Assembly: GCA_051294905.1 (NCBI GenBank)
Contig: CM119371.1
Span: 10,852,001 to 10,916,000 of the forward strand
Direction: 5' to 3'
Length of the DNA: 64,000 bases
Origin: Botryllus schlosseri
Lineage: Eukaryota
Part shown: piece after piece, positions 873-55,803 of the stretch
Numbering within the stretch: the first letter of the stretch is position 1
How the letters are laid out: the number at the start of each line of letters is the position of its first letter
Notes under the pieces: generated by a model
The model's input: only the letters and a program-made list of their open reading frames with translations
Database searches by the model: none
What the model was told of the DNA's origin: nothing
Position numbers and translations under genes: made by a program

Positions 873-947
873 CATCATAGCTCGATACACCTTCGTGTAT
901 ATCGGGTGGAAATGTTGCTGTTGTTGCTGCTGATTCGTTTGTTGAAC
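873..947 (-). CDS. Gene A exon 3: Ser/Thr-rich stalk exon (G)STNESAATTATFPPDIHEGVSSYD
   Basis: Acceptor TATTTCAG, donor GTATGT, 75 nt, phase 1-1, in frame with the upstream lectin exon. Its start (TTTCAG|GT TCA ACA) resembles gene C exon 3 (TTTCAG|CT TCA ACA). Its end (SYD) resembles the TYN/QYN ends of the B/C stalk exons. Downstream exons not found in the window. Confidence 0.6.
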
Positions 948-1679
948 CTGAAATACAATTATGTGCTGTTAGTTCGAGTCATGGCGACGCTATTTTTGTG
1001 ATAAAACGATTATGTAGTTAACAATTGTGCTGACTTGATATTTCAGCAGTGACATAAAAGCACGACGCGACGCTGTCAAAGTAATACGTCTGAAACTCGC
1101 AATAGCCGTTACCTAGGCTTACCATATGTCCTCTTTTAGTAGGCTTTTTGCTCTTTTTACAAGAGCAGTTAATGGCCCTCCGATGACGTTAAAAATACCA
1201 TAATATCCCATTATTTGCATTTCGAGGTTGCTGGTTGTATTCGCAACCGGAATTTTGGGCGAGACGTTGTATACTTCGGGAAAAACTAGCGTATCCATGG
1301 CAAATCCAAAATTTGTGATTTTTAAAAGGTTTTCCAGCAAATTGTGAGGACCTGACGCAATTCTTTCTTCAATGCAGTCGCAATGGCGCAGAGAAATGAA
1401 GTTTTGAGCACGAGGCTGTATACAATTTCAATGATATTTTGCGTAAACAATTTCACTGTCTCATTAAAAATACCCATGCCTAATGGGCAAAATTTAAAGG
1501 ATTCGCAACGTATTTTTGGGCGGACACGACAAAATATGATTAGTCGTTTTTGTTCCTAATTACTTTGCTTTGTTTTGCTTACATATACCGAGGAAATGTG
1601 GAACATCATCAAACTGAAATGTAACAAGTAATCAATCGGTTGAGTTTGTTAAAAGATGCGTTTTATTATTCCAATATAC

Positions 1680-1858
1680 CTCTATCTACACAATTGTACT
1701 CGATTTCCACATATCCCTTAACTTGTTCACAGAGTGAGGCGAAATCGTTATCATCCTTCTTCGGTAGCAGGCACGATTCGTGATTCTCGCAAGAATTCTT
1801 CAATATGTTTAGACCATCCGGTCGGTTGCATGTTTTCTTATTCCACCACCAGCCGCAT
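1680..1858 (-). CDS. Gene A exon 2: C-terminal half of SUEL/Gal_Lectin domain (CGWWWNKKTCNRPDGLNILKNSCENHESCLLPKKDDNDFASLCEQVKGYVEIEYNCVDR)
   Basis: Acceptor CACAG, donor G|GTATAT, 179 nt, phase 2-1. The six-Cys spacing and Y-x-x-x-x-Y-x-C end match SUEL domains and exon 2 of paralogues B and C. Confidence 0.8.
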
Positions 1859-2166
1859 CTGTGTGAATACATGCGTGTAATCATCAGGAACGATGGGCGA
1901 TTGTTTAAAAAGTGAGTATCAATATCAAAATATTGGAACCATCATGAAAACCAATGAAGAGTTCAAACGTTTACGTAGAAACATAGTTTCATAATAGCGA
2001 GAGATTGGAAATAACGGGTGTATAAGCGATGGTGGCATATTAGCGAGGCGAGTCAATAGTGACACAATAACAAAAGCTAGAATTCCAAGATTGTCCTTAA
2101 TAAAGCTACATCGAGTTACGCTCTGTAGAAAGTGATATGGGATGTGACAATCACAAATGCACTTAC

Positions 2167-2281
2167 TTTTTCTCCTTCGATGGTTTCGCAGAGGTGACGG
2201 TAATAACTTTACCGTGGCGACACGACATCGTATTTGGTAGATCAGCATCACACGCCTTGACGGTACCCATTTCTGATAGGT
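2167..2281 (-). CDS. Gene A exon 1: N-terminal half of SUEL/Gal_Lectin domain (LSEMGTVKACDADLPNTMSCRHGKVITVTSAKPSKEK)
   Basis: Acceptor CCTTCAG, donor GTAAGT, ends in phase 2 and joins exon 2 in frame (AA|A TGC = K-C). Same two-Cys spacing as B/C exon 1. Met lies 6 residues before the first Cys, as in B and C. Confidence 0.75.
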
Positions 2282-4770: not shown

Positions 4771-6011
4771 TCAAAATCAACCTCATCAGAACTAATAACT
4801 CCCTTCAATCGAAAAAAAAAACAGAATCTACTCGCGTACCACCTGGAAGACTTTCGCGTACCACTAGTGGTACGCGTACCACAGGTTGGTAACCCCTGCT
4901 TTAGTACTTTCAAACCTCCATTTTCCATTTCGAGTTGAAGTAGCTTCCTTTTCCTCCAATCGTCTGCTATTAGAAACATTCAAACTTTCTACTTTAGTAC
5001 CAACGGCAAATAATTTGATCATATATGAATATTTTATTCAAGTATCCATCAAGTATCGCCAGTATCTAAGCGTTACAATCTAACTATCTGAGAGGTGATT
5101 GCTTCAAATGTTCCGTGACAGAAAGCAGCACCAATTCTGGTATCAATATCCCTGACTCCCACTTGTAGACATAATCTGCTTACTGCTTACTCTGCTACTG
5201 CAAGATCGTACATTTCTGTTATAAATCACAGCGAGGGAATATGGAACCTTTTAGCCCCCTTCGATATAAGATGCTTATTCAGACGTATCACCCACTAATA
5301 GAGACATATACATGCATTCATAAGACATAAGACATGAGACATCCATTCATAAGTTTATCGAAACTTTTAAACCAATATACTATGTTTGCAAATGACACCT
5401 TAAGACGGATCATCGCTCTCGGTTGAGTCGCACATTCCCGAAAAGCATAAGAGTGCAATTTCATGACTCAAACGATCACGTCAAATTTACAATGTAAGAG
5501 CGAATAGCCTATATGTAGCATATGTATAGTCGGTATTTGATCCTAAATGGAATAAAATGACCTATCGCTTCCTCAAGTCAACTCTGACAATAACACAAAG
5601 ACGTGCTAAAATATTGCAGAGCAACCCGACCCGTCATAACATGCGAAAGTAGAAGCCGCGTCCTGTGTTGATGTCAATGGTGATTCTGCACGTAAATATT
5701 TGACGATGCATGGCTATGAGTAGCAGTTTCCATCAATCACCATCACGGTGCTGCGATAATGTTAGTAGTATTAAACTATTGTAATCGAGCAACATAAAAT
5801 ATATATATTACGAAAGGTTAGTTAAGAATGACTGGAAGGAGGTTACTTTTGAATGGACTGCCTAACCATTACCTAACATTTTCCATGGTATTAGGGTCAA
5901 TTATGAAGACCACAATCACATCAACATCGACAACTACCGAATTTGTCATGCTCGACAGAGATATATGCTTTATTTCAATATCGGATATATCAAGCACATG
6001 CTTATATAGTA

Positions 6012-6973
6012 GGGGAGATGTGGTACCGATGGATCACTGGGACCGAAAATACTTGAAAAATTCTCCATGATAATTCCATGATTACACTCCGTGAATTTGT
6101 CTAGAATTACATGCTGGCAGAATCTTTCCCCACATGCAAAAAAAATCGACCTGCGTGAGTTATGGGGTCTGTGACGAATGATTTATGTTTTAGGGGGTGT
6201 AAAGTAAATTTGGATCGACACTTGCATTTTTCTATATCACCTTTCACACTAACAAACCCCCCATAATTTTTGATGTGGCGTGTAGGGCTTGTATCAGGGT
6301 ACATATTGGCACATATTTTTTAAATCAATACCATCATTGAGTGGACTATTTTCAAGTCAATTACAATATTTATGGGGTGGGGGACCTATGGTACCATAGC
6401 CAAATCAAGTAAAATAGATGGACCAACTAATCACTTATCAACATAAACTCGCCTACATATATATAGGCGGTAAATCATAGTTACCTGTGGTGTTTTATCA
6501 CTATTACGAGGTATTTGAAAGCCAAAATGTCGATTTGCGGGCAATATGTATGTGGCATTAATTTTTTACGTTTGGGCGTAAATAAAAACATGATTTTATG
6601 CCAACATTTGAGTTGATAAAATTTATTTTATTCTTGAAGGTCACGTCGAAACATTCTTCATTGACCTGCTCTAGCTTAGATTATAGTACACAACAAAATA
6701 AGTTGACAATTTTGAGTTTTTTAGCGTATGTCTCATAGGTCCCATGGTCGTGTGCCTTTGGACCCACCGTGTGGGGACCTATGACACGTTCGAGCAACAA
6801 ATTTTAAACGTTTATAAATATTTTTTGAAAAGGCGGATATTCATGTACATGTCTGCGATAGGTAGAGCTTGTATCGAAGTGTTGAGACAGCAACAGATCT
6901 GCTATTCTCGGCTGACGATTTGGGGGCCAGAGATCATTTTGCAATTTTTGATCCATCGGTACCACATCTCCCC
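6012..6973. mobile_element. ~960-bp TIR element flanked by TA (Tc1/mariner-pogo-like MITE), copy 1
   Basis: 25-bp TIR GGGGAGATGTGGTACCGATGGATCA and its reverse complement, TA on both sides. A close second copy lies at 9819-10784. Superfamily is inferred from the TA flanks only. Confidence 0.8.
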
Positions 6974-8503
6974 TATAAAGACAAAACGATGAAAACATCA
7001 AAATGCAGAGATGAAATGCCAGTTCATAAATGTGAGAGGCCACTTTCTTTCCACATACAATTTGCATTACATCAACAATATCATTACATCATACATTTCG
7101 CGATGGATGGTGATATATTGTCACGGTCGAATCAAAAACATTTGGTACAGAAGTTGAAAAATGGAAGGGATATTCAGACTAATGTTCATCCCAATATCTG
7201 AACTTCTCATAATCATCAAATCTATACTAAGGTTCGTACCTTGATTGATGATGACATCCTCGACATGCAATTGTACGAGATGTTGATGTACATTGTTAAT
7301 TTATGAATGGAGCGGATATCCTGCAATAGGGGTGCCAGACATACGAACAGCGAAGCAATTTTGAGTATAGATTGAATAAATGGGTGTATTATCGAGCATA
7401 TTTCTAACAGCAAATGTTGGCATTTTTGGTAAGAAATACTTCCGTTATATAATCCCTCAATACCGTATTTTCATGTTCATATGCCATAACTAACAGCGGT
7501 GTTGTTGGAACAGTCATTTACGTCGACACCCAAATTCGAGAAAACAAAAAAGTGCATGCTGATTACTGAGTTCCGAGTTTTATGGGGAAATAGACGCAAA
7601 ACTAGATATTCACAAAAGAAAAAACGCTGATGCAAAACCTTTATATGCACTATGCAGGTAACATGGATAATATAATAGTTACGTGGATGGCAGGGCTGAC
7701 GCCACGATACGACCAAATCAATGGGTGCATAGAAATATGACAACTCGTATCATCGTAAGAGCCTCTGTTTTAGCGGTTTATAACTGTATTCAGCCCTCAG
7801 TCATCCTAATATTGCTTTAATTCCATAGTGGATGAATAAGTGTGTAGCTGGAATAGAAACCCTGTGATACGTAATATGATGTGCTATAGACATACTATCG
7901 TTTGTATAGGCTTGATAATAAAGTTTGTTTTGGGGTATTCATGGTGTTTGTCGACTACTATGGTCATTTACACCAGGCCAATATTCTTATTATTTTCCGT
8001 AACTGCCGACTTATAGCACGGCCCACCTCTAGGCTTTCGTTAGACACCGCTGACGCGGATAATAAAGTATTCAAATTAAAAACAATGGTATGTGAGCGTA
8101 CTGGAGGTTTGAATGCGGTTTGGCAACCCTGTTTTACAACGTCGCAGACTGTTCCGATGTATTACTTTACCTGACTATAGATGCCACAATCCTTTAGCGA
8201 CCAATGCGTAATCGTAGTATATTGAATCTGATTCGGTGATGGTCTATCTTTTCATCATACCAGTCAAATAGATATGATCGCAATGCGATACAACTATGGT
8301 GACGACGGTTTTGCGGCAGCCAGCATTTTTTCATAAATCCACCGTATTAGGAATGCAGCTAATAAATTAAACGATATGTAGCATTGGACCCTCGCTGCAG
8401 CTACATAGGCTATATGTGTGGCATCGAGATCGATAGTCAAATGCATGCTCCACAATGCTGCTAGAATTTTAAAATATGAAAAGATCGTGCTCCAATGGAC
8501 ACT

Positions 8504-8729
8504 TCACAGATTCCCGTAAATAATGTTTTCTTTCATAACTTTATCGGCTGGATCTCTGTCGTGCAACTGAAGCGTGAACGTATCCGTACCGTCCATGGAG
8601 TATGGATTGTCGTCGCTTGCAGAATCGTCAGCTGTTGGGTTTGACTCGTAGCTTCTGTTTGTGCTTCCTTTCATTCCATAAATCTCGTTTTGCTGTTCTT
8701 CTGCAAAAACTTGTTGTTTGATGCATCGC
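8504..8729 (-). CDS. Gene B terminal exon: cytoplasmic tail (RCIKQQVFAEEQQNEIYGMKGSTNRSYESNPTADDSASDDNPYSMDGTDTFTLQLHDRDPADKVMKENIIYGNL*)
   Basis: Acceptor TTTACTTTTTAG, phase 2 matching the TM exon at 21377. Clear homology to gene C terminal exon (RC.K..V..EE.QNEIY.M.G and KxMxENIxYG). Confidence 0.85.
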
Positions 8730-9818
8730 CTAAAAAGTAAAGCGTAATGTCTTCATACTGGCAATGAGGCTACTATTAGAGTTGCATTTAAAACAAAAAT
8801 CAATTTACAACAAACATGTTTAAAACGAGGCCCCTAATTTAAATTATGTTTTTCATTGTTTTTTAAATTATTTTTAAAAGCCATGACGTCTCGAATATTC
8901 AATTTTGACGCCATAGTGGATTGACGTTGACAATTGAAAAAAATAGGGTAAAAATAGCTCCTTTGACGAAATATGTGTACTATTGTTGTTGAACCGAATA
9001 TTTTTAGGGTTTCAACCATCCTATATCGATAAACGTCCGCTAAATCGGGTGGTAATTGTCCTTAGGATCACACAACTTGTTTTTTGTAAAGTATTTACAC
9101 AATTATGGCATAATTTTACAATTACCAAAAAAATGTTATTTTTAAAAACGCCTTTTTTTAAACATTGTTTATAACATGTTTTAAACAAAGTGTTTTAAAA
9201 CACCGCTTGTTCTGAATGGAACCATAGTTACTATACGTCCTCTATTATCACGATTCGTCCTCTTTTTTTGCCTTTTACAAAAGTGTCCCCGGAGGACGAT
9301 CAAATGTCTTATATTTTAAAAAATTTTGCTCTTTTTTGAGAATTTGGTGCAATATAGGGTAAAATTCGACTGAGATACAGTACATCATCACTGAAATAAC
9401 GCTCCGGTGGCTATTTTGGGAGCTGAGTCGGAAAGTTGACTTTTTTTTGTCAACCAACCACAAATTCGGGAAAAATTTACCATTTTTCCGGATTTTACTC
9501 CAGCAATGTAAGTATGAAAATTTTGGAAAGGAGTCCTTTTTCAGATTTCCAAAATATGGTAACCCTACGTCACAGGTCTCAAACTCAAATGTACTCGCAG
9601 ATCAATTTCCTACTTTTTGATTGCGCCGCGGGCCGCAGCACCAATAATAGGGGAGTTTAATGCATTTCCGAGTATAGGCCTTATTTGACGGGGCCTTCTA
9701 GACTGACATTCTAAACGTATCGGGGAAATATGATTCACTATTGTGAATTCACGCCTTGCACGAGAAAAATTAAATTTTAAAATATTTGAATAAAATTCTT
9801 ACTGCACTTGGCATAGTA

Positions 9819-10784
9819 GAAGAGATGTGGTACCGATGGATCACTGGGACCGAAAATACTTGAAAAATTCACCATGATAATTCCATAATTACACTCCGTG
9901 AATTTGTCTACAATGACATGCTGACAGAATCTTTCCTCACATGCAAAAAAATTCGACCTGCGTGAGTTATTTGGTCCGTGACAAATGATTTACGTTTTAT
10001 GGGGTGTAAAGTAAATTTGGATCGACATTTGCATTTCTCTATATCATCTTTCAGGCTGACAAACCCGCCATGATTTTTGATGTGAAGTATAGGGTTTGTA
10101 TCAAGGTATATAATGGCACATATTTTTTTAATCAATACCATCCTCGAGTGGACTATTTTCAAGTCAATTACAATAGTTATGGGATGGGGGACCTATGCTA
10201 CCATAGCCAAATCAAGCAAAATAGATGGACCAACTAATCACTCAACATCAGAAACTCGCCCACACATATATAGGCTGTAAATCAAAGTTACCTGTGGTGT
10301 TTCATCGCTATTACGAGGTATTTGAAAGTCAAAATGTCGATTTGCGGGTAATATATATGTGGCATTAATTTTGTAAATTGAAGCGTAAATCAAAACATGA
10401 TTTTATGCCAACATTTGAGTTGATATAATCTATTTTATTCTTGAAGGTAGCAACGAAACATTCTTCATTGGCTTGCTGTAGCTTAGCTTAAAGTACACAA
10501 CAACAAAAAGTGACAAATTTGAGTTTTTGAGAGTATGAATCATAGGTCCCATGGTCGTGTGCCATAGGACCCACCGGGTGGGGACCGATGACACGTTCGA
10601 GCAACAAATTTTAAACGTTTATAAATATTTTTTTTAAACGCGGATATTCATATATGTAAATGTCTGCGATAGGTAGAGCTTGTATGGAAGTGTTGAGACA
10701 GCAAAAGATATGCTATTCTCGGTTGAAGATTTGAGGGCCAGAGATCATTTTGCAATTTTTGATCCATCGGTACCACATCTCCCC
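9819..10784. mobile_element. ~960-bp TIR element, copy 2
   Basis: Colinear with 6012-6973 along its whole length, same TIR with two substitutions at the left end, TA flanks. Confidence 0.8.
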
Positions 10785-11039
10785 TAGTTGTATGTTTAGT
10801 TTTGGACACCATGCGAGAGTACAAATGCATCAGGACATCCTAACAGCTATCGCGTTACAATTTAGCAGCTATAGCGTACGATTGACGTGTCAGAAATGTA
10901 GGTATAATCTTTCAGAATTTCAAAGGGATTGATCTGGTATCAGAGCATTGGAGCAGTACAGCCTAATCCGGGTTTCGGGCATACTCCTTATAACTCGGAT
11001 ATTGATCAAGTCAAATTAAATCGGCGTTAGATTTACCCT

Positions 11040-11874
11040 TGTAGCGTACCGCTCCATGACTAACCCATAATTACCCTCGCTGATGACTGATTACGTTACT
11101 GCTACGTCTTGTTGTGTTGTACTCTTTTATGCAGTCGCTTTTAGTCACCGTCCGAGCCAGTCGTCTTTTAGTATCCGTTGGATGAGCATCGTCATGTTTT
11201 AGTCGTTTTATTAAAAGAGCAATGCTGACTTGTCTACTTTGACTTATCGAGCCGCGGACCAAGAAGAACGCGCGCCAACGACAGAGCACGCTATATTTTG
11301 GTGACCCCATAACTGACAAATCCGGCTTCCACCGAAACAAACCACGACTCCGGCGAATGGGACCAGAAATTGACCACCGGTGGCGGCATCCTCGGGGTAC
11401 CATTGAAATTCGCTGAGTTCGCAATATCGTCTATCGATAGTTGTCGTCGTTGTCGTCGAGAAGACATTTCAAATACAGCAGAGAGTGAGCAAGGGATTCG
11501 AGTCGGCGAGTGCACGTTGGGTTCGAGTCGGCTGGCGAATCACGTCAGCTAGGATGGCCAGCGAAATTACGTCGGCTTCTGATCACGTCGGCTTCTGATC
11601 ACGTCGGGGTCACCAAAATATAGCGTGCTCTGTCGTTGGCGCGCGTTCTTCTTGGTCCGCGGCTCGATAAGTCAAAGTAGACAAGTCAGCATTGCTCTTT
11701 TAATAAAACGACTAAAACATGACGATGCTCATCCGACGGATACTAAAAGACGACTGGCTCGGACGGTGACTAAAAGCGACTGCATAAAAGAGTACAACAC
11801 AACAAGACGTAGCAGTAACGTAATCAGTCGTCAGCGAGGGTAATTATGGGTTAGTCATGGAGCGGTACGCTACA
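11040..11874. mobile_element. Non-autonomous long-TIR element, Ginger-like
   Basis: 269-bp TIRs (11040-11308 and 11606-11874; two mismatches seen), TGTAG...CTACA termini, 4-bp flanks CCCT/CCTT, ~300-bp GC-richer core. Confidence 0.7.
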
Positions 11875-12502
11875 CCTTCAAATATAGTAACAGATATAAA
11901 ACAACTTGAATGTATATATTTTGATTACTGTGCCATAACAATAGAGATGTCCAATCGTCGAAGAATCCACTGGTGTTCCAGCTGTCAAGCGTCTATATGC
12001 TACGACTACGTTATACTCACCACAGTTAATTGGAGAAAATGACAAGGATAAAGATACCCAAGTGATGACACTATGATGATGACACTATACATCAAGAGGA
12101 CAGCACTATGCCAATGGTTTAGATATTCAAATAAGCTACGCAACACAAGCTGAGACCTTTTGATGTATTATAGGGTTGCCCTACGTCCTGAATTTCCCGG
12201 ACATTTCCGGAATTTCTCTGTTGAAACTGCGTCCGGGTGGAATTTCTAAATTATGCCCAAATGTCCGGGATTTTGAAGTCTTGAAGTAAGCTCATAATTT
12301 TTCGTAAATCAACATAAACAATATTGTTTTGGGGCAGATCTATCCTACATGAAATTTCTCTTATGTTGGTTTTAATATGGGGAAGGGAACCCTCGCAAAA
12401 ACGACAATCAAAAACACATGAAAATAACATTTACTTACAAAAATAGGGAGAATTGTAATCGCAATTACAAGATAGCGGTATATTCATAGAGTCGGTTTAA
12501 GC

Positions 12503-21376: not shown

Positions 21377-21476
21377 CTATGGTACAACATGATGATAGTA
21401 GCTAAAATCAGTATTGCCACTAATACACATACGACTATCCCACCGATGACTTCCGAACGAAGATTTGCCGTGACAT
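21377..21476 (-). CDS. Gene B exon 5: transmembrane helix (DVTANLRSEVIGGIVVCVLVAILILATIIMLYHR)
   Basis: Acceptor TTTGCAG, donor GTGAGT, 100 nt, phase 1-2, a run of more than 20 hydrophobic residues. Same length as and homologous to gene C exon 36738-36837. Confidence 0.9.
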
Positions 21477-22625: not shown

Positions 22626-22772
22626 CGTTGTACGTAGTTGTTAAAGCAGAAGTTCCTGTTACGCTCTGGAACAAAGTTTGCCCGTCCTCGCTTGTCTTTG
22701 TGAAATCCAAAGTGTCTTTGGCGTCAAGATATGTAGCCGAGATATATTCGTCTGTATTGAACGACTCTGTCG
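22626..22772 (-). CDS. Gene B exon 4: Thr/Ser-rich stalk (TTESFNTDEYISATYLDAKDTLDFTKTSEDGQTLFQSVTGTSALTTTYN)
   Basis: Acceptor TTGACAG, donor GTTAGT, 147 nt, phase 1-1. Homologous to 42954-43055 (TE.F.T.EY..ATYL...DT...TS.DG). Confidence 0.85.
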
Positions 22773-24290: not shown

Positions 24291-24401
24291 TTTCGATATG
24301 ATTGTGGTTCCGTACGAAAGAAGTTTCAAAAGCTCGCGGTAGTAACGGCGAAGCTGCTGTCCCTGTTGTAAATGTGTACGAGGTTGATGTACTTGCTGAC
24401 G
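24291..24401 (-). CDS. Gene B exon 3: Ser/Thr-rich stalk (ASASTSTSYTFTTGTAASPLLPRAFETSFVRNHNHIE)
   Basis: Acceptor TGTTTTAG, donor GTACGA, 111 nt, phase 1-1. Same length and HxxIE end as gene C exon 47665-47775. Confidence 0.85.
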
Positions 24402-24892: not shown

Positions 24893-24927
<35 letters not shown>

Positions 24928-25162: not shown

Positions 25163-25178
25163 CAAGATATGAACGTAT

Positions 25179-25351
25179 CTTGGGACACACACCGGTATTC
25201 AACTTTGAGATATCTGTTAGCATGATTGCACTGTCCACCAAATACAAAATCTGACGCTTCCAGTAGACAGGATGTACGACCCTGGCAAGCCTTTATCACT
25301 ATGCTCAAGCTTTCCGGAATCTTACATTCCCTCGTCCAAGAGTGACCGCAT
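25179..25351 (-). CDS. Gene B exon 2: C-terminal half of SUEL/Gal_Lectin domain (CGHSWTRECKIPESLSIVIKACQGRTSCLLEASDFVFGGQCNHANRYLKVEYRCVSQ)
   Basis: Acceptor TCTTCCTAAAG and the typical C-x-G-R-x-S-C...FG-x-x-C...YL-x-V-x-Y-x-C pattern. 173 nt like the gene C exon. The donor position reads AT, not GT. Confidence 0.9.
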
Positions 25352-25879: not shown

Positions 25880-25989
25880 CTGGCAAACATGGATACTCTT
25901 CCGTAAATTGCATATATAATATCCAAAAAGTAATTATCTGAACACTGTATAGTTTTCGAGTTTCCTTCGCAAATACTTGCGGTCATCAT
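25880..25989 (-). CDS. Gene B exon 1: N-terminal half of SUEL/Gal_Lectin domain (MMTASICEGNSKTIQCSDNYFLDIIYAIYGRVSMFA)
   Basis: CE...C...I..A.YGR motif, donor AG|GTGAGC in phase 2, acceptor TTTAG 26 nt upstream of the ATG. Six-exon model totals 867 nt (288 aa). Confidence 0.9.
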
Positions 25990-34701: not shown

Positions 34702-34861
34702 TCAACGAGTTCCGTAAAGAATGTTTTCCGTCATCATTTTTTCAGCTGCACCACTGTCGTCCCCCGGTGGAGTTGTCTCGATACATCTGTCTACTGCTCC
34801 TTCCATTTCGTAAATCTCGTTTTGCCTTTCTTCCCTGATAACTTTTTTCTTGACGCACCGT
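34702..34861 (-). CDS. Gene C terminal exon: cytoplasmic tail (RCVKKKVIREERQNEIYEMEGAVDRCIETTPPGDDSGAAEKMMTENILYGTR*)
   Basis: Acceptor TATTTATAG, phase 2 matching the TM exon. Homologous to 8504-8729. Confidence 0.85.
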
Positions 34862-36737: not shown

Positions 36738-36837
36738 TTGCGGTACAACATGATGATTGCAACCACCAGAAGACTAACTACTAAGGCACAGACCACGATT
36801 CCAACTATTACTTCCAGGCTCAGACTCGATAAAGCAT
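36738..36837 (-). CDS. Gene C exon 5: transmembrane helix (DALSSLSLEVIVGIVVCALVVSLLVVAIIMLYRK)
   Basis: Acceptor ATTTTGCAG, donor GTAAGT, 100 nt, phase 1-2, hydrophobic run followed by basic residues. Confidence 0.9.
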
Positions 36838-42953: not shown

Positions 42954-43055
42954 CATTGTATTGAGATACAGGTCGTCCGTCCTTGCTTGTTGTTGTGTCA
43001 CGGACGGCTAAATATGTTGCGGTATCATATTCGATCGTCTTAAATGGCTCTGTCG
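42954..43055 (-). CDS. Gene C exon 4: Thr-rich stalk (TTEPFKTIEYDTATYLAVRDTTTSKDGRPVSQYN)
   Basis: Acceptor TTTACTTTGCCAG, donor GTTAGT, 102 nt, phase 1-1. Homologous to 22626-22772. Confidence 0.85.
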
Positions 43056-45489: not shown

Positions 45490-45907
45490 CTGTATGTATA
45501 ACGTTTAGCTTTCTATTGTTAGTCCTACTCGGAGGTGGTCAGTACTACAGTGACTAGTACTAGTACTTTGTGCTACTTACTTGGTTATGTTTATCAATAC
45601 TTACACTTACACTTGAATTGTTTTCTAGATTCTCACTTTGTATTTCCGAATGTGGAAATAATTTTGTGAGAAGCTTGCATCACTGTACGAGTGAAATTGT
45701 GGCAAAAATAAAACGTATTAATTAATCCTGAGGGGCTAGTTTGACTTGAGCTCGAAGGTGAATGATTTTTCGGGCTTGAATCGGGCCAATATGCAAATCG
45801 GCAATTAATATCACACCTGTAATATCTGCAATATGTAAGAATTGATTAATTCATGATCAATCGTTAATGTAATTTTTACTTGTCTGATTTGCTCAGATAT
45901 CCTAGGT

Positions 45908-47133
45908 CAGGGGTTCTCAGCTCTTTCTTGGCCGTGGCCCATTTTCCGGTTTAAAAATATGCTGTGGCCCACCTGATATCTTAGAGTCATAATCTTGTTT
46001 AATGCGTGGTCATTGGTCATGGAGAGCGCCGATATGCCTATTTCTCAAATATATGCGCATTTTCTTCTAACTGATTATATTTAAATGTCGATCTTCATGG
46101 ATATGAAATCGCACGAAGCGCGAAAATTTTTTTCAAGTTGAATAAATATCATCCAACAAACGACCCTGGGCCCTTCGAGCGCCCCCAATTGGGGATGTGG
46201 GTGCGGCAGTTACGGCCCTGGTAGATCATAAGCTAAAACTCCTAAGTAGATTATTTTCGTCCGCTGCTCCATTCGCGTCGCGAAACACAATGATGAGATC
46301 CCCCGCACTGTGTGATTGGGACTTTGGTGATACTATTGCGGGGAATACTATAATCATTCTGGGCCAGCATCGAACATTCATTGGTGAATTGGGTACAACA
46401 GAGAAGTGGAGAAAGATTTTTCAATATGCATGATGTAGGCTACGTTGTATGTCTCGTACCAAAACAACTGAAGTTGCGATGTCAGAATATTCAATCCAAT
46501 GACACAATCAATTCCTGTACTCGTTCATATGTACAATGATTTCCAGGCCGGACATTTTAAACCGATTTCAAAGATTAATGCGCTCCGATAAATCCTCAAT
46601 CCATTAAGGTTCGTTGCGGTAGTGCAGTATACCTCCGCCAGAAGTTGCTAATAATTTGCAATTATGGCTATTTTTAGCTTGCAATAATGCGGCCGCCGAA
46701 GTACAGTAAATCTGTACATCAATTGCACTTCATTGCGAGGTCATTGCATACCCCTTTCAGCGGCATACGACATATGACCCTGCCGGAATAATTGAATGCT
46801 TCAGCATTATCTTCTATTTATTATACGCTTGAAATTATTTTAGTTGCTCTACGCCGTAGGTTGTCATAGCCAGTAGAAAAAGCCACCGTTTCTCCCTAAC
46901 GTGTTCGATTTGAACATGCTGACTTCATACGTGCCACTACGTCTAATCAGAGTCGGATGAAAAGCTTTATGTAGCCAACGTAAAATCAGATAATACGAAT
47001 CTATTTTAGCGAATAACATAAGAAATATACTGAACTGACATTAATTCTGAAATTTTCTAAATAGCTCCGTGGCCCAACTCAAAATGATCTGTGGCCCACC
47101 AGTGGGCCATGACCCACCCTTTGAGAACCCTTG
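45908..47133. mobile_element. hAT MITE ~1.23 kb, copy 2
   Basis: Colinear with 12503-13734, TSD TCCTAGGT/TCCTAGCT. Confidence 0.9.
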
Positions 47134-47664
47134 TCCTAGCTTGTCAGCCAACTTAGGTGAAAACTACCCTTTCATGGACCTTTAAGCTACTTTAATTGCG
47201 GGTAACGGTTACTATTCTACATTTACATTAAATTGCACATTGCACGTAACAATTGGATTGAGCAACGGACCAAAATGAACTAGGTTATCTCTGTTAAAGG
47301 CATTGAGATAATTCACCATTTCGACAGACTTTGAGTAATTCTCTGCACTGCATTTTAATTACGTGTTTATTTGTTTAAATTTTAATCAATGGCGCATATA
47401 AACAATGAGGGCGAAACATAGGGTTTTAATTTATTATCCGTTTCCATTGACGATCATTATTTATGTGTATGCCTCGTATCTATGACTATCGTTTACGATG
47501 AAAACCGCGATAAAATGTTTCTCCGTTATCATCGTTTTGACCCAAAAATGACACATCTTGGATACCAGCCTTTATTCCAGCTCTGAAATCATCACATATT
47601 ACGCTTTCTTTGTCAGCAAAACATAGCGATAATAGGTTATTCTATTCTCTGCATACCCACTTAC

Positions 47665-47775
47665 TTTCGATGTAACCGTGGTGTCCTATAGATGTAATCT
47701 TCGACGCCTTTGATGGTAAGATTGATGCTGTTATCGGTGTTTTATGGCTTGACGACGGAAATATGGCTGTTGAAG
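47665..47775 (-). CDS. Gene C exon 3: Ser/Thr/Pro-rich stalk (ASTAIFPSSSHKTPITASILPSKASKITSIGHHGYIE)
   Basis: Acceptor GTGTTTCAG, donor GTAAGT, 111 nt, phase 1-1. Confidence 0.85.
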
Positions 47776-48086
47776 CTGAAACACATATCCATTTATCACT
47801 AACTAATGAATACTGTTCATCAGCTGTTCATAAAGTATGCGAATGATGTAAATTTCGGTTGCGGTCGCAAGGAGAGCCATCGATTAATATACGTAACGTG
47901 TGACGAATGTTGATTAAAAACATATCAAATTTTTTTTTGCTGACTTCATCCGTTTCTCAGTCCACTGTGTTGGTTGCTATACGCGGACAATTTATTACGA
48001 CGGTGTGACCGGATATAATAAGCATCCAACTTTTTTTACACTGTGGTCCCCTCGGCATATTTAAAAAAATCAATGTCCCCCTACTA

Positions 48087-50214
48087 CCCAGCAAACACCC
48101 GATATCCCGTGGAGTTACTGGTATGTCCACAATTGTTCCCACTCGTCCCACCTCCCACCCTCAGTTACGGAGGACTTGCTCAGTATGCCCAACATTGGAC
48201 GTCAATGTATGTAACTCCAGGTGACTACCAGAGGGAGTGAATTTTAGAATGTTCCAGTGCCAGTCACCAATGACCATTCCAGTGGATGTCATAATGGTGT
48301 AATGCCTGGATGCCACCTACACAGGAGTTCGTCAGAATGTCCCTACTTGGAAATCGTTTCTATGAATTCAAGTGTGCATTGTGCAATCAATGCAAAATAG
48401 TTTTCTGAATACAATCATGATTGTCATGATACATTTCACCATTTGTAATCTATCGGAGTGAATACGAGAATGTTGATTGATGATATGGCGATGACTTTCT
48501 ATCGCGCGGAACTTCAGAAGCCCGGCTATCGATGATCGCGGTCGCACATTGTTAGAGATATAATGTACGTTATAGGGATATACAGCTATTTTATTGTGAC
48601 ATTACTGGATCGAAATGTCCACATCAAGGCAAAATATATTATTTCAAATATACCGTATACCCAATGCATGTGAAATCTTCCGACATGAAAACTTGACAAC
48701 CGTAATAATGGTATGGTGATGACTATTCCAATCACGGAACTACTCAGTCTGCCCGGCTATTATCGATAATTAAGGCCGCACTGCGCAAGAGGCCAGCGAT
48801 AATGCATATGAGGTATTCCGATACCTGTCGAGTCTCGAGTGTCGAGCCGAGCACGCCTGTTGCTTGAAATTCATTCAACCATAAAACCAAAAGACTCCGT
48901 TCTTCTGTCTGGCGAGCTTTCGCGCGTGATTCAATTTGAATTTGACAGAACAGGTTTTGTAGTAATGGTGGAGTGACGGATTTATCACAGGAATGGTTTA
49001 GTTTAGAATAGGATACTAAACGGCGTGGATGGATTGTGCCTGCTATTGATTATTATTGATATTGTCGCTGTCATGAGTACTGGAAAGGCAGAGAGCACGG
49101 AAGCTTGGTATTTGCGTGCTATATTTATTGAACAGCAATAGCCTCGGTCATCATTAACTGCGATAACCGTAATGAATTTCACTATGATTCTAGTGGCACG
49201 TCTGCGCCGCGGTTTATCATGTACGAACGAAACTAATCGACCCGCTGCTAATCGTAAACTTATGCAGTATACTTGTAATCAATACTATAGTATAACGATG
49301 AGCATGATCATGATAATATTTAATTATATGCAATCATTGAAGTTCGATTTGCAGCACAGTGGGTTTCATGTTGTTGTTAATCCAACTTACTGTTTGATGT
49401 GTAGTGTGTACGGTATATACTATGAAAAGTTTGACACGAATTTCCAAAGACTGCAAGATCCATGCAGCAAACCAGATGCAGCATCGATGAATGTAATATA
49501 GCCTATAGCCAGTGGTTAGGTTTATATAGCTACATAATTTGAAAGTGTATTATAGGATGTTACTTTACGGAATGCGAGATTGCTGAATTTTTGGCTGAAA
49601 ACTATTATTGCACCTATGCTAATTAATATTAGTATCCCATTGACTGGCATGCATATTAATAATATATATTACGATAATATGATATTATCGTATTTGTTGT
49701 AATTTTGTGTTGTGTCCACAACAACATAATAACCATTGATACTAGTCGAGGCTTTCGGTGAACATGTCAAAATGTATGACTTTATTATTAGTTTAATATT
49801 AGGGTATTCGAGGAACAATCATTAAAGTTAACCCAACTTTAACATGAGCCTAATTTAATGATACCCCAACGCTAAACCAATTATAAACTACATGGATTTT
49901 AACATGTTCATGGGGAAGACGGGTTGTCGCAATGTCGCCGTGCAACATACTTAGAATGCTTACTTAGAACTTGCAATATAACGATAACTTATAATTTATA
50001 TACATATAGCTTATCTATACGATATCTTGAAATCCCTGGTAATAAATAGTTCACTTCATGTCCACAGCACGTCATTGCGGGTGTACTCAGAGGGCAGACA
50101 GGACGTCCCTATAGTTGTCGACAAACTCACTCGAGGGAGGTGACAGCCGTAAGTTACCGGACGTCCTGCCGGCAATTCCACCGGAAGTCAACTGGACATC
50201 GAGTGTTTGCTGGG
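48087..50214. mobile_element. TIR element, possibly CMC/EnSpm-type, non-autonomous
   Basis: TIR CCCAGCAAACAC / GTGTTTGCTGGG with 2-bp TA flanks. Superfamily inferred from the termini only. Confidence 0.55.
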
Positions 50215-51158
50215 TACTTTCAAAACTCCGAAAATATTGAAAAAACATCAATTTAATTAAAAAACTGGTGTATACGCAGTTATCGGCGAGTGGATGTGGA
50301 GATGATAGATGTTTGAAAATATTGATTTTATAAAGTGTTTTATGGTCCACAGATAGGGAAGCCCAGTCTAATCTCAAGCCACAGCAATCTGTCCCATTTT
50401 AAGGCGCATATTGTTTTCTAAGTTGTGGTCTTGTAAGATTGGTGAGCGCCAATTTGACTAAAGGGGTGGGAGCTCTTTACAATTTAGTAGTTTGTGACTT
50501 AAAAAGGTTGGAAACTATTGATGCAGTAGAGGCCTATGCATAGCGCATAATGCAATAAATAGATTCACTAGAATTACATTGCAGCAATGACTATATTGTG
50601 ATATAATTCATGTTTCATGGAATTATTGGGTAGCACACTGCTTCGCTGTTTTGTTCATGTTCATATAAACGTAATGTGATATCACGAAAACTATTGTATG
50701 CGATGTGTAAGGCTTGAGTAGCAAGACAGTGATGAAACTTAGATTTGGAAGCACTAAAAGGCTTAGGAACCACTGCTATACATAATACCCCCAATGTCGG
50801 ACTCACGTGTCGGTATAGGGACGTTGTTGAACATGATTAAAATAAAACGCACAGCAATCCCTGCATTTTGGCAAAATACTGCGGTCACGGTACGTATTAG
50901 AAATTACGAGATGCTGGGTGGATCGCGCCGTATTCGAAATAAAATCCGTTACTCTACATAACATATGATCCTTCTATCCTTGTTGATTTTACGGTCTGAT
51001 ACAAATTCGTGATTCATATATATAGATATCATCGGATATCGATATCTACAAGTACTCGGCTAACATGATGTGTTTCAAAGCACGTTTTAGGCAACGTGAA
51101 AATATGTTATTTACATACTAATAATAGGTATATTATAGCATCTATCATTATAACCCAC

Positions 51159-51331
51159 CTCGGGAAAGACAGTTGAATTCAACTTTGAGATATCTTTTCG
51201 AATCATTGCAATAACTACCAAATTCGATATCCGTCGCATTTAGAAGGCATGAAGAACGATCTTGACAGGCCTTTTTCACTGTCTCAAGGCTATTCGGCGT
51301 TTCACATGTACTCGTGAAAGAAAAACCGCAC
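51159..51331 (-). CDS. Gene C exon 2: C-terminal half of SUEL/Gal_Lectin domain (CGFSFTSTCETPNSLETVKKACQDRSSCLLNATDIEFGSYCNDSKRYLKVEFNCLSR)
   Basis: Acceptor TCTTCTGAAG, donor G|GTGGGT, 173 nt, phase 2-1, six conserved Cys. Confidence 0.9.
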
Positions 51332-51743
51332 CTTCAGAAGATCATACATCATTCACGTATTCCCGCTTTTTGTAATTAGCATGTTCGACAAAGAAAGAGT
51401 CAGACAAAATTATTCGTCGTTGAATTTTTAAGACAGATGTGTTGCCGTAAATATTCAATTACAGTAGATCCGATTATGTGCAACCTATTCCGAGTTTAGA
51501 TCAGACACAGAGATGTAAATTCATCAGAGACAACTGTTCTCCGGGAGCAGGTCACATATAGTTTACGTCCTTATTGTATGAGAGCATGAGTTTGAAACTA
51601 TACAGCGGTATAATCTCACGAAACGAGTCGCAAATATTGAAGATGTTTGGGAAAATCCCAGTTTATATTGAGTAAGTTATCAAACGATGATAACACAAAT
51701 ATTGTAGAATTTCGAGTTGACGAGTCAAGAGCATCAATTCAGC

Positions 51744-53703
51744 CAGGGTATGGTATGGTATGGAAGTATGGTATGGTATGGGACGAAATTTCGGTATGGA
51801 ATATGGAAGAGTGCAAGTATATGGTATGGTATGGAAATTTCCCAAGTATGGTATGGAATGTGTTTTCCATACTTCCATACTTTTCCATACTTTGACAGTT
51901 TTGCCAGAACCATGACAATAATCCTACTTTACATTTGTCAAATTGATTGCATACCACAGAAAATCGCTCATTGTCTATGTTCATATCTCAAATTGTGATT
52001 CATGACTCCCCCATCCCGGTCGACATCTATGTGAAGACAACAAAGTTTTGCGCCGCGCTTATGAATGGAAATAATATTGACAAAATTATTCCGATTTAAA
52101 TATCATGAAAATGAATGATATTCGACCGCTGTCGCGTTACAATTGCATTTCGCTTATCGTAACTTCCACTACGTAAATAACCAATGTAGTTTTAAAATCG
52201 TAGACTCTGAGAATGTAGAAGTAACATGAATATTTTTATCAATTTGTTAATTTTCTGCGCTTTGGGAGGATGATCGTCAAGCAATATCTATTTGACAGAA
52301 CCATCATTGTAATTCTAAAATATGTAGCTTGTCTTGAAGCGACTTTACGATATGTAGGCCTACAACACGCATTGTAACTTCATGAAATATGGATATTTCT
52401 GATATAGGCCTAATGGACAGCGGACACCTTCATGTCTGGCTAATGAAGCTAACGAGTGTGACCCACAGATTGGTGGAAAAAATAGACATTTGATTAGCTG
52501 TCGCAAAATGATTGTAGTGATATAAAATTTATTTAAAGATCTATCCCAATGCAGGTGTTTCCAACCGATGGGGATGCGACAGTGCGGGTTATGGTGGCTT
52601 TATATCTACCATTCGCATTAGCTCGTCAACACCAGGAAGTTCATCTGACTCATGCAATATATTCGGCATTGGCACATTTAAATTGATGCTACCTTGGTAC
52701 ATTTGGAAAAATTACAAACCCTTCCTAGTTTTTGCGGGCTTACCTCACATATCTATTTTAAGGAGGCGCAACATTGCGCGTACGGTTATCAGTTCACTGC
52801 GCATTAATTTTATTGCGTGCTGTTTCATTCTGGGGGTCTTAACTTTCACCAACAGCAAGTCTTTACAAAAGAAAGTCTTATGAAATGTTATTGGAGGATC
52901 AATTTAAAAGTGTATAAAGCAGTGGTTCTCAACCTGGGGGCGCCCTCCCCCCTTGGGTGACGTGAAAGCAGCTGAAGGGGGGCGCGAAGAAGCGGTTAAC
53001 TGAAAAAAAATTCGCGCACTGCGCGATTTACCACCAATTCACGCACGTTTCTCTCTATATAGACCGAATTTCATATTTATGAATTCTCTCATCAACAGTC
53101 ATAACCTTCCATGCCATCAAACAATCTGTTGGGGTTGCTAGCATCCCGGTTAGATTTTGTGATATGACGATAAGGGGGGCGCGAAATTTTTCACTATCAT
53201 GAAGGAGGGCGTGTCTAAAAAAGGTTGAGAACCACTGGTATAAAGGTTGGGAACCTACCTTATAATTTGACAATACCTTTGTTTTATGTAATTCTGTAGA
53301 TGAGGTTATGCTAGCAGTGCGTTACCACATTAGATTTACATGTCGTGAGATTCTGTTGTGATTTCCAAATAATCCTGTAGGATACATAGACCTACATCAT
53401 ACATTCCTACATCGCTGACGACATATGATATAAAGAAACTGGGGATATCGTTGGTGCATCAGGACTGTTTAAATGAATAATTTCATCCAAAATAATTAGA
53501 ATATACACGCCGGACCACTTCCACACGCAAAAATAGAATATCAGTTGAGAGGTGGTCAAGTTTCGAAAGTATGGAAAAAGTATCAAATATGGTATGGAAG
53601 AATGTTGGTATGGTATGGAAAATCGTCACGTATGGTATGGAACGATTGGGCGGGTATGGAGTATGGAAGATTCTAATTCCATTCCATACCATACCATGCC
53701 CTG
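51744..53703. mobile_element. hAT-type element with (GTATG)n subterminal arrays
   Basis: TIR CAGGGTATGGTATGG / CCATACCATGCCCTG, perfect TSD AATTCAGC. Confidence 0.9.
52920..53237. mobile_element. 318-bp hAT MITE (reverse-orientation relative at 26398-26704, fragment near 61150-61305)
   Basis: TIR CAGTGGTTCTCAACC, perfect TSD GTATAAAG. Confidence 0.9.
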
Positions 53704-53975
53704 AATTCAGCTAAAAGAAGCTGAACACGGATTACTTGCGGGCATTGCGATTCGATGTGTTACCAATATCGTGGTTTTAATAAATTTACTTCGAGGTGGT
53801 CTAAAGCACACCTTCCATATGAATTACATTGGTGAAGTAATTTATCGGCAAACATGGGTACCCTCTTATACGAGCAAATCAGTTCAGCTATATTTCACTA
53901 TGTTCGATCACATTCTGATCTCACGTTGTGGGTACAACATGACTTTTATATAGCGCGTGAGACGGATATACTTAC

Positions 53976-54085
53976 CAAGAAAACGAGGATAATCTTCCAT
54001 AATTCGCATAAGAGATATTCAAAAATGTATCATCTTCACAACGAATAGTTTGCGATTCACCTTCACAAATCTTGACATCAGACAT
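53976..54085 (-). CDS. Gene C exon 1: N-terminal half of SUEL/Gal_Lectin domain (MSDVKICEGESQTIRCEDDTFLNISYANYGRLSSFS)
   Basis: Canonical ANYGR motif, donor GTAAGT in phase 2, acceptor TTTTTTAG 26 nt upstream of the ATG. Six-exon model totals 756 nt (251 aa). Confidence 0.9.
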
Positions 54086-55803
54086 ATTTGTTTGGTATCG
54101 TTGCTTTTAAACTAAAAAATTGCGAACAAAATTGACACGGGCGTAAGACGATGAACCCAGGTTGCGATCAAATATGTTATATTGGTCGACTCCCTGCATT
54201 CGGCCAGTTTGGTTCTGCTTCCTTTTTGGCCGAATTAAGCGGGGAAACGTTTTTCCGATTTCAGCGGAAAATCAATTCTTCACATCACGACCGTGTGTAA
54301 ATGCAAATAACGCATTCAAAATACGGTACGTTCAGTTATACCTTTAGGTTATTTGTATTATGCATTATTTTGGATACTAATCCGTTCAACAAACATTATA
54401 TATTGCATATAGGCAGGGTTGTCATCGACATGGACCAAAAAATAAGGACAGTCGAAAAATTAGATTAGCATGAAAAAGCGTTTTTGTACATATATTGTAT
54501 TTATACTAGCCATGGCATATCACGTTCCATACTTTTCGCCAGAAACAATCTGCTCCAGCAACTCCTTGTTATTACAAAGTTCTTTATAGATGTCACTACA
54601 ACTCACGTCTAGATTTACCTACACTCAGGGCCGAAACAGCACTTCGTCAGCCCCCCCCCCAAAAAAAAAAATATATACGTTGGCCTTGCCCGTACGGTGA
54701 TAAACCAACTTGTTCACCTCGTTGTGATTAGAGGCGTCAACCAAGATGGTAAAAGACCGTGCACCAGGTCTGGACAAAATCACTTTTTGAGCGTATGGAG
54801 CAAGAACTCCAATAACAATGGTTGTAGTCTTGGTCCTGGCCGAAGAAAACTTATTTGCGATGCTGGAATCTCATAATCGTCGCAAAAATTTTTATTACGC
54901 CTGCTCATTTTAACTAATCAGATTAAGCCTTAGTAGTAGCTAAAACTGTATGCGCAAGTGCAATATATTTTATATAAATTTATCAATGATTTCTAGTTTT
55001 ACTACTTTTTAACCTACCGTATGTGTCGACCGCACTGCGCCTTTTTTCACTACACAATAAATGCTGCCTTCCCCACGGCTTGAGCTTATTCTGCCGTAGA
55101 CCAAAAACAGCAGGAACCTGGCACTGCTGTTTACTGCTAAAATGACGTCCGGTGTGGTAGCTTAGTACAGACTAAATTGCTATACCACCACTCACTGCCC
55201 TAGTTATCTCACCACTTAAAAGTTCAATCTTGTGATGTGTATGTCACGAGAGTTCCTTTCAGTTATAATGTCATAAAATCTCGAAGCGAAAGCATAATTT
55301 TAGAATAATATGCAACACAGATACCAGAGAAAAACGATCGAAGTTCAGTAGTAGTTGAAAATAACACAAAATAAGGACGCAAGTCGAAAATAAGGACGTT
55401 TGTTAGAAATAAGGACAGTTAAGTTTTCTAAGACGTGACCCTTCAAAATAACGACAAATCTTAGAAATAAGGACGGTATATAGGGTTGCATTTGAAATAA
55501 AAATCCATTTAAAACAAACATGTTCAATAAATGTTTTTAATTTTTTTAGCCATGACGTCCCAAATCTTTTATTGTGACGTCACAGTGTATTGCCGTTCAC
55601 AATCGAAAATATAGGGTGAATATGGTTCCTTCGAAGAAAAGGGCTTCCGACCATTGTCATAAACAGACTAAATATATATTTATCCAGGAATACATTGTTA
55701 TGAAACATTTTTACAGTCGTCGGTTATCATCATCAGAATACACATTTCATGTCAATTACCTATATCTATTTGCTATAACTGTCGAACCAACGACGATTTA
55801 GAG

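Follow-up and report, generated by a model that had tools for sequence, protein, structure and literature searches.

RBL/SUEL domains (RBL, rhamnose-binding lectin) are known from secreted lectins, latrophilins, PKD1-like proteins and EVA-1. In this study, 64,000 nucleotides (nt) of the genome of Botryllus schlosseri, contig CM119371.1 (C1), positions 10852001-10916000, were analysed; this whole stretch is called the window. It contains a minus-strand cluster of three paralogous genes, A, B and C, each of which is predicted to code for one SUEL/RBL domain, a stalk rich in Ser and Thr, one transmembrane (TM) helix and a tail with tyrosine motifs. Coordinates are positions in the window, and those in the flanks are window-equivalent (negative to the left of the window, above 64000 to its right).

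EVA-1 is a co-receptor for SLT-1/Slit. EVA-1/C21orf63 (EVA1C) resembles the present proteins in being single-pass, in its SUEL/RBL ectodomain and in its substituted sugar-contacting residues (PMC2430599). It differs from them in having two RBL domains instead of one, and the present family combines a Ser/Thr stalk and a tail bearing two NxxY motifs with the lack of a signal peptide. The profile of this tail matched no full-length protein, so the tails of EVA-1 are unrelated at that level. Moreover, the present genes form a multi-copy, fast-diverging cluster and not a conserved one-to-one gene. One-to-one orthology to a conserved gene, which an earlier reading of the letters of the window (the sequence-only reading) had raised as the opposing possibility, does not hold for EVA-1, as the tail exists in at least 14 copies and one RBL domain is found per protein.

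Latrophilins (ADGRL) also carry an N-terminal RBL domain on a membrane receptor; however, they are seven-pass adhesion G-protein-coupled receptors with olfactomedin and GAIN domains, whereas the present proteins have one TM helix and a short tail. The soluble lectins SUL-I (5h4s), CSL3 (2zx0) and SUEL give the best matches for both halves of the domain and share the eight-Cys pattern and, with B and C, the CEG and ANYGR motifs. They are secreted proteins of two or three tandem domains, in contrast to the single membrane-anchored domain considered here.

Several transmembrane adaptors lack a signal peptide, and palmitoylated adaptors carry a Cys just after the TM helix, as B and C do. The adaptors PAG, LIME and SIT are small proteins that cross the membrane once and carry several tyrosine motifs in their tails. 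Their ectodomains are of a few residues (16 in PAG), whereas the outside part of the present proteins has 129-192 residues with a folded domain.

The oyster receptors CgCLec-TM1 and CgCLec-HTM and receptors of the Dectin-1 type combine a carbohydrate-recognition-type domain outside, one TM helix and a kinase-recruiting tail tyrosine, according to a 2026 review (PMC13027682). These transmembrane C-type lectin receptors differ in fold (C-type against RBL) and in the tail, where a hemITAM binding Syk stands against NxxY motifs without the spacing of an immunoreceptor tyrosine-based activation motif (ITAM). In that review, a table lists rhamnose-binding lectins as secretory only, and only C-type lectins are named as transmembrane receptors with tyrosine motifs (PMC13027682). 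In a literature search outside subscription journals, no account of membrane receptors with a single RBL domain and a tyrosine tail was found.

On balance, the window probably holds three members of a lineage-restricted, fast-turnover family of single-pass proteins of 235-288 residues, which would consist of an outside lectin-fold domain, a reverse signal-anchor helix and an NxxY tail. As judged from sequence comparison, the family is real, turns over fast and is a variant of lectin-type receptors, with a candidate function and candidate expression.

Gene models

A six-frame list of the open frames of the window was made, and 2223 open frames were compared all against all. Exons were located by a scan for open exons bounded by AG and GT with the lengths named in the sequence-only reading. 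The scan recovered the 173-nt exon of C and the 111-nt and 100-nt exons in both the B and C regions; the 173-nt exon of B, whose donor is not GT, escaped it and was placed by hand. The TM and tail exons of A were found in DNA fetched from the left of the window. The GC fraction of the window is 0.38-0.43; exons are short, introns are long, and interspersed repeats are abundant, as in a genome of the animal type. No exon of the GFP family was found by a search aimed at such exons.

The three paralogues lie in tandem on the minus strand. C (34702-54085) consists of six exons coding for 251 residues, without an internal stop and with AG/GT at every junction. B (8504-25989) consists of six exons with an open frame of 288 residues, and the donor after its exon 2 reads ATACGT instead of GT. 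A consists of five exons coding for 235 residues; it starts at 2270, its frame is open and all its junctions are AG/GT. Only a part of A is inside the window, its TM and tail exons being 5.3-7.4 kb to the left, at -5309..-5408 and -7169..-7418. The exons inside the window are as follows.

53976..54085, minus strand: C exon 1, 110 nt, ends in phase 2; ATG and N-terminal half of SUEL/RBL; donor GTAAGT; in-frame TAA 24 nt upstream of the ATG
51159..51331, minus strand: C exon 2, 173 nt; C-terminal half of SUEL/RBL; AG/GTGGGT
47665..47775, minus strand: C exon 3, 111 nt, phase 1-1; Ser/Thr-rich stalk; AG/GTAAGT; open in the required frame
42954..43055, minus strand: C exon 4, 102 nt, phase 1-1; stalk; AG/GTTAGT; 47% identity to the B counterpart (4e-07)
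36738..36837, minus strand: C exon 5, 100 nt; TM helix; AG/GTAAGT; best 19-mer hydropathy 3.35; 59-60% identity to the TM exons of B and A
34702..34861, minus strand: C exon 6; basic stop-transfer segment and tail with NEIY, ENILYG and stop; 7 Lys/Arg in the first 14 residues after the TM window
25880..25989, minus strand: B exon 1, 110 nt; ATG and N-terminal half of SUEL/RBL; donor GTGAGC; in-frame TAA 24 nt upstream of the ATG
25179..25351, minus strand: B exon 2, 173 nt; C-terminal half of SUEL/RBL; donor ATACGT; an alternative GT 12 nt upstream would delete the eighth Cys
24291..24401, minus strand: B exon 3, 111 nt; Ser/Thr-rich stalk; AG/GTACGA
22626..22772, minus strand: B exon 4, 147 nt; stalk; AG/GTTAGT
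21377..21476, minus strand: B exon 5, 100 nt; TM helix; AG/GTGAGT; hydropathy 3.23
8504..8729, minus strand: B exon 6; tail with NEIY, ENIIYG and stop; 5 Tyr in the tail
2167..2270, minus strand: A exon 1, 104 nt; ATG and diverged N-terminal half of SUEL; YGR motif lost
1680..1858, minus strand: A exon 2, 179 nt; C-terminal half of SUEL; AG/GTATAT
873..947, minus strand: A exon 3, 75 nt; short Ser/Thr stalk

The intron phases are identical in A, B and C, and the lengths of 110, 173, 111 and 100 nt are common to B and C, where the 110 nt are counted from the ATG. The length of the stalk exon 4 differs, with 147 nt in B and 102 nt in C. The three minus-strand paralogues, their matching phases and these four shared lengths had been described in the sequence-only reading, and all were found in place. 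The outer limits given there are also true exon ends: 873 is the last base of A exon 3, and 54111 is the first base after a TTTAG acceptor located 26 nt upstream of the ATG of C. The description of the genes as strongly diverged tandem duplicates is borne out by whole-protein identities of 38% (A-B), 40% (A-C) and 51% (B-C).

The relationship between the genes also appears in the all-against-all comparison. The C and B frames 53975-54106 and 25879-26010 agree at 53% over 43 residues (1.3e-13), 51151-51333 and 25153-25353 at 57% over 58 residues (2.8e-21), 42952-43224 and 22624-22818 at 47% over 45 residues (4e-07), and 34705-34881 and 8507-8752 at 37% over 79 residues (1.1e-16). Frame 1669-1941 of A matches the second lectin frame pair at 6e-13. 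With values of 1e-13 to 3e-21 among 2223 open frames, the pairing of the paralogous exons is not due to chance.

Lectin-fold domain

Each of A, B and C codes for one SUEL/RBL domain, which is divided between two exons. The exons were scored singly, not as a spliced domain, against the Pfam SUEL_Lectin profile (PF02140), whose curated cut-off is 31.4 bits. Exon 2 of B (2.1e-12, 47.6 bits) and of C (2.4e-10, 41.0 bits) scored above the cut-off, and exon 2 of A scored just under it (5.8e-07, 30.2 bits); the Pfam match that the sequence-only reading had named as a deciding point is therefore above the cut-off in B and C and falls slightly short in A. The matches of the three exons extend from profile position 22 or 24 to position 80 of 80 (24-80 in C). 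The first lectin exon alone gave no Pfam match in any of four paralogues.

The structural matches cover both halves. For exon 1 of C, the matching segment of the solved L-rhamnose-binding lectin 5h4s is its N-terminal half, at residues 4-32 (1.4e-09), and CSL3 is matched at 0.0012. Exon 2 matches 5h4s at 2.5e-25 in B and 3e-20 in C, and in both genes it also matches CSL3 (6.8e-06 in C). The RBL domains of latrophilins match as well, at 2.6e-07 to 1.7e-06 for exon 2 of B.

Eight Cys are found in each ectodomain, at positions 7, 16, 38, 46, 59, 65, 78 and 91 in both B and C and at 7, 17, 36, 45, 58, 64, 78 and 91 in A, which is within 2 residues of B and C. By these profile and structure matches, the assignment to the SUEL/RBL fold is safe.

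Stalk, transmembrane helix and tail

The stalk has a Ser plus Thr fraction of 0.29-0.34 in A, B and C, and the ectodomain contains 1 N-x-S/T sequon in A, 0 in B and 3 in C. A single hydrophobic 19-mer is present in each protein, with a mean Kyte-Doolittle value of 3.2-3.45. Within 14 residues, 3-7 Lys/Arg follow the TM window, whereas 0-1 precede it. The predicted outside part has 129-192 residues, and the predicted cytosolic tail has 57-87 residues with 3-5 Tyr. Pfam searches assigned no family to the tails and stalk exons; for the TM exon, the matches, all to other TM segments, stayed under the threshold (DAP10, for example, reached 13 bits, its cut-off being 22.9 bits).

The tail starts with a Lys/Arg-rich stop-transfer stretch, which is followed by an acidic part. 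Near the membrane the motif is NEIY in B and C and NVIY in A, and ENI(I/L)YG stands at the C-terminus. The architecture described in the sequence-only reading, an eight-Cys SUEL domain, a Ser/Thr stalk, one TM helix and a tail with NEIY and ENIxYG, agrees with the gene models apart from the NVIY of A. Both motifs are copies of the same word, (K/Q)(E/Q)-N-x-(I/L/V)-Y, and the second copy is followed by Gly, two residues and the stop.

In eight aligned genomic paralogue tails, all of which begin at the same acceptor in the same phase, the proximal N and Y and the distal E-N-I are invariant. The proximal N-x-(I/L/V)-Y is present in all eight, and the distal copy in seven, the eighth being cut by TAG at the Tyr codon. 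The C-terminal motif also occurs in six of the seven fragments found in other assemblies. Tails of the E type, described below, lack the proximal Tyr.

ITAMs are pairs of YxxL/I separated by 6-12 residues, and an immunoreceptor tyrosine-based inhibition motif (ITIM) reads (I/V/L/S)xYxx(I/L/V). Motifs of the NPxY/NxxY type serve as docking sites for phosphotyrosine-binding (PTB) domains or as sorting signals. Readings as ITAM, hemITAM or ITIM were considered and rejected: the conserved Tyr stand as Y-(E/G)-(M/V)-x and Y-G-(T/N)-x near opposite ends of the 57-87-residue tail, and the ITAM spacing is absent. The ITIM pattern fits only the last six residues of B and neither A nor C. By their form, the NxxY tyrosines could be putative PTB-docking or sorting signals. 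In the proposed mechanism, they would be used by PTB-type adaptors or, after phosphorylation, by SH2 proteins, which would lead to uptake or signalling.

Copies elsewhere in the genome

The genome searched is an assembly of 495.5 Mb in 219 contigs. The tail exon occurs in at least 14 places, 13 of them on the same contig within 10.84-13.11 Mb and one on contig C18, and two of the copies carry a stop. The copies referred to by letter outside the window are listed here.

Window-equivalent 87630-88644, minus strand: D, fourth tandem paralogue to the right of the window; SUEL exons 1 and 2 with the same Met start
Window-equivalent 100491-102830, minus strand: E, TM exon and tail of the family, to the right of the window; tail without the membrane-proximal Tyr
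C1 13.07-13.13 Mb, plus strand (opposite orientation): second cluster, with B', A' and F

Among at least 63 SUEL exon matches in the whole genome, obtained from 79 scored candidates, the six SUEL exons of the family form one branch (support 95/95) against 30 other SUEL exons. Most of the SUEL exon matches in the genome start at profile position 20-24, which indicates that one and the same intron interrupts the domain throughout its SUEL genes. Dense groups of SUEL exons lie on contig C2 at 35.58-35.85 Mb.

In the second cluster, all six exons of B' are present, with TAA in exon 2 and TAG in the tail, and F is the start of a further SUEL gene. The exon-2 donor of B' is GT, which indicates that the AT donor of B is the derived state. 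The likeness of A' to A (86-92% DNA identity) is limited to the part that begins 1.7 kb ahead of the TM exon and closes with the tail, and 137 frames upstream of A' gave no Pfam match above the cut-off. Upstream of E, 21 kb contain no SUEL exon or other attributable Pfam domain, only transposon-type matches (hAT, zinc finger), and the 143 frames to the right of the window gave only the SUEL exon of D and transposon domains. A local SUEL-exon profile found none near E or A', nor in two further 10-kb stretches; short exons would escape such frame and profile scans for the 5' parts of E and A'. From this arrangement, the cassette of TM and tail exons appears not to be tied to the SUEL domain and would also be joined to other, unrecognised 5' parts.

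The ratio of non-synonymous to synonymous substitution rates (dN/dS) was 0.18 for A against A' over the TM and tail exons (dS 0.15), 0.31 for B against C, where dS is about 1 and near saturation, and 0.47 for C against D. The DNA of A and A' differs by 8-14% where the TM and tail exons and their introns align, against only 1.5-3% at non-synonymous sites; differences accumulate at third codon positions in the older pairs. Read from the substitutions, the ratios of 0.18-0.47 argue for past coding constraint. Family size and dN/dS had been proposed as checks in the sequence-only reading, and they come to at least 14 tail places and ratios of 0.18-0.62, the highest being that of B against B' discussed below.

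Outside this genome, a tail profile was searched with HMMER against 1,835,955,588 representative proteins. It found seven proteins of 55-119 residues, all of which are single frames from Logan contigs of 1.1-2.5 kb and include intron-coded residues, and no full-length protein among these representatives. The best fragment is about 61% identical to the nearest copy here, and relatives therefore exist in other assemblies. With only these seven short fragments found, the lineage-specific family suggested by the sequence-only reading does look lineage-restricted, and it looks unlisted in the protein collections searched.

Proposed function and alternative explanations

The findings that weigh against the proposed receptor family concern the sugar site, decayed or partial copies, RNA and protein catalogues, and the missing signal peptide; they are given here together with the alternatives on which they bear.

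In the RBL domain of latrophilin-1, rhamnose is contacted by Glu42, Tyr63, Gly117 and Lys120; E42D binds about 80-fold more weakly, and K120R and K120A show no detectable binding (PMC2430599, Table 1). It is also stated there that receptor-type RBL domains often have substituted sugar-contacting residues (PMC2430599). In the present family, these residues are not kept. The loop-2 Lys of the K-Y-L in 5h4s, CSL3 and ADGRL2/3 aligns to Arg in B and C and to Gly in A, and by eye, in the exon translations, it is also replaced in D and F. The loop D-P-C...G-T-Y-K-Y-L of the soluble lectins becomes C-N-x-x-x-R-Y-L in B and C. Among A, B and C, the Glu is retained only in B and C, where CEG after Cys1 and the YGR motif (as ANYGR) are both present; A has CDA and no YGR, and by eye the Glu after Cys1 is missing in D, B' and F. 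Canonical binding of rhamnose or galactose is therefore doubtful on sequence grounds, and the term lectin may be a fold name only, because A, B and C have lost the loop-2 Lys and K120R abolishes detectable binding in latrophilin-1.

These replacements favour a different function, in which the outside domain would not act as a lectin and would bind a protein partner, for cell-cell recognition, adhesion or as a co-receptor, like the RBL domains of EVA-1 and latrophilin, and would not serve in glycan pattern recognition. This explanation has some probability but is less likely than not, as CEG and YGR are kept in B and C and the Arg could still form a hydrogen bond to a sugar in an altered loop. 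In the reading that we prefer, the domain would bind a ligand, glycan or protein, through a site unlike the canonical rhamnose/galactose site, and a putative role in pattern recognition or cell recognition is plausible. Of the recognition receptors envisaged in the sequence-only reading, the fold and the tail stand, whereas the replaced loop-2 Lys, the lack of a signal peptide, the damaged donor of B and the occurrence of TM and tail exons without SUEL count against them.

A stronger version, tentative and rather unlikely in our estimate, is that the cluster represents a new receptor family in which a disulfide-rich domain of 130-190 residues would be exported without a signal peptide by a reverse signal-anchor downstream of it and a portable TM and tail cassette with two NxxY tyrosines would be shuffled among different 5' parts within a 2.3-Mb stretch of one chromosome, the high turnover marking recognition of self and non-self or of microbes, as in clustered immune and allorecognition families. 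With multi-copy minimal receptors composed of one RBL domain, mucin stalk, TM helix and tyrosine tail, this fold would gain a form that is bound to the membrane and capable of signalling. If expression were restricted to a cell type, a stage or a challenge, the cluster would be a candidate recognition locus of this animal.

The copies and the RNA data bear on another explanation, that the cluster is a graveyard holding relics of a once-functional lectin-receptor family that is no longer expressed, with the frames of A and C not yet broken. The exon-2 donor of B is AT, B' has TAA in the lectin exon and TAG in the tail, and a further tail copy carries TGA. D is truncated: the 33 kb downstream, between D and C, yielded neither a TM exon nor a tail exon, and this gene may be a partial copy. 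The dN/dS of B against B' is 0.62, only the TM exon being clearly constrained (non-synonymous and synonymous differences per site, pN 0.015 and pS 0.137), and the flanking DNA of this pair is nearly as similar (68-90% identity) as its exons (84-95%). On these sequence features, constraint on the B lineage looks relaxed, and B and B' look disabled; A and C look intact.

Expression was examined for gene C only, on 34500-54499, in four bulk RNA runs with the same species label, from which 33,470,714 records were read, that is, about 6-13% of each run. The depth was zero in the bins of the tail, TM and third exons of C in all four runs, and none of the 14 listed joints was an exon junction; the junction reads that the sequence-only reading had itself named as a deciding point were thus absent for C in these four shallow runs. 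Of the 1,972 reads placed on this stretch, 1,927 were placed only partly, as repeat copies are, and where the bins of exons 1, 2 and 4 had depth, it was accompanied by differences, joints and loose ends elsewhere in these bins (54422 and 54472; 51761-51794; 42589-42637). A search of sequencing runs with the tail exon and 3' region of C listed no RNA run. C is silent or very rare in the sampled RNA.

RNA reads heap on short repeat pieces in the introns of C (43877-43920, 45318-45350, 42589-42637 and 38200-39700), with many loose ends and joints that go back. One of the covered pieces is a 37-nt tandem repeat at 45336-45429. These pile-ups are transcribed copies of repeats from elsewhere and not of gene C.

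Nor was an annotated full-length protein with this tail or with the lectin exon of C found; the word-index queries with the B tail, the alignment of eight tails and the lectin exon of C are weak evidence in this respect. The ESM Atlas gave no usable match for the tail of A. The catalogues appear to miss the family, and small genes with short exons and long introns can go unseen when expression is rare.

The decay, the silence in RNA and the lack of an annotated protein all fit a graveyard. It is nevertheless unlikely, since A with five exons and C with six retain open frames, all splice signals and eight Cys despite 40% identity, the other pairs show dN/dS values of 0.18-0.47, the two tail motifs do not vary among eight paralogues and recur in the fragments from other assemblies at about 61% identity, and the RNA sample is a small part of four bulk runs for gene C alone. 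In the preferred reading of a living family, birth-and-death evolution would account for the copies, and B would have been disabled recently at one splice donor.

The start codon concerns the way in which the domain could reach the outside. The N-terminal 40 residues of A, B and C contain no hydrophobic stretch (best 10-mer 0.2-1.5), and Cys1 is residue 7. In each of the six paralogues whose first exon codes for SUEL (A, B, C, D, B' and F), Cys1 is preceded by a Met at a distance of exactly 6 residues, the frame is closed by a stop 15-63 nt upstream of this Met, and a purine is found at -3; other SUEL genes of this genome have no comparable Met before the first-half exon. In B and B', no AG lies between the upstream in-frame TAA (24 nt) and the ATG, so no in-frame upstream coding exon can be joined there. 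The candidate acceptors upstream of the ATG disagree in phase, which is 0 for C and D and 2 for A and F. B, B' and C have in common a TTTAG located about 26 nt ahead of the start codon, and this acceptor suggests a non-coding upstream exon or a trans-spliced leader.

The proteins show the sequence features of type III (reverse signal-anchor) topology, namely a single TM helix, a surplus of positive charge on its C-terminal side and the lack of a signal peptide, and by hydropathy and the upstream stops they lack the cleavable N-terminal signal peptide of type I. From the conservation of the ATG and the charge bias, we infer that translation begins at this ATG and that the TM helix serves as a reverse signal-anchor, which leaves the N-terminus outside; in this mechanism, the lectin-fold domain and the stalk would be outside and the tail cytosolic.

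Against this, the export of a 129-192-residue N-terminal domain without a signal peptide would be unusual. To form their four disulfides, RBL domains of secreted proteins or receptors normally have to pass through the secretory pathway. An upstream coding exon may also exist for C and D, where an AG in phase 0 lies 18 nt before the ATG. That the genes code for ordinary type I receptors, with an unrecognised upstream signal-peptide exon and an internal conserved Met, would agree with these points and with the TTTAG acceptor of B, B' and C, which implies at least one upstream exon or a trans-spliced leader, but it is quite improbable in view of the TAA that closes the lectin frame of B and B' with no AG between it and the ATG, the acceptor phases of A and F against C and D, which leave no shared intron phase, and the Met and the purine at -3 in six of six paralogues. 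If the reverse signal-anchor reading is correct, this disulfide-rich domain without a signal peptide would be a natural test case for long N-terminal domains crossing behind a signal-anchor.

Other features of the window

Pfam searches of all 83 window frames of at least 80 residues gave no match apart from the SUEL exons. Between B and C, at 31640-33016 on the plus strand, lies an open frame of 459 residues, which has no Pfam match even at E values up to 10. It is a shortened copy of a very abundant element, with 1909 first-look candidates and 93 genome matches; many of the copies have open frames of about 860 residues, often in close head-to-head or tandem pairs.

The long introns contain further repeats. 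The same interspersed repeat is found in the long introns of B and C, at 12470-13830 and 45860-47160, the two copies being 70-96% alike by frame, and another repeat has copies at 5820-7200 and 9770-10840. In the 12.6-kb last intron of B, 11040-11308 and 11606-11874 form an inverted repeat with arms of 269 nt, 99% complementary and 297 nt apart, and the whole segment (11040-11874) looks like a foldback-type insertion.

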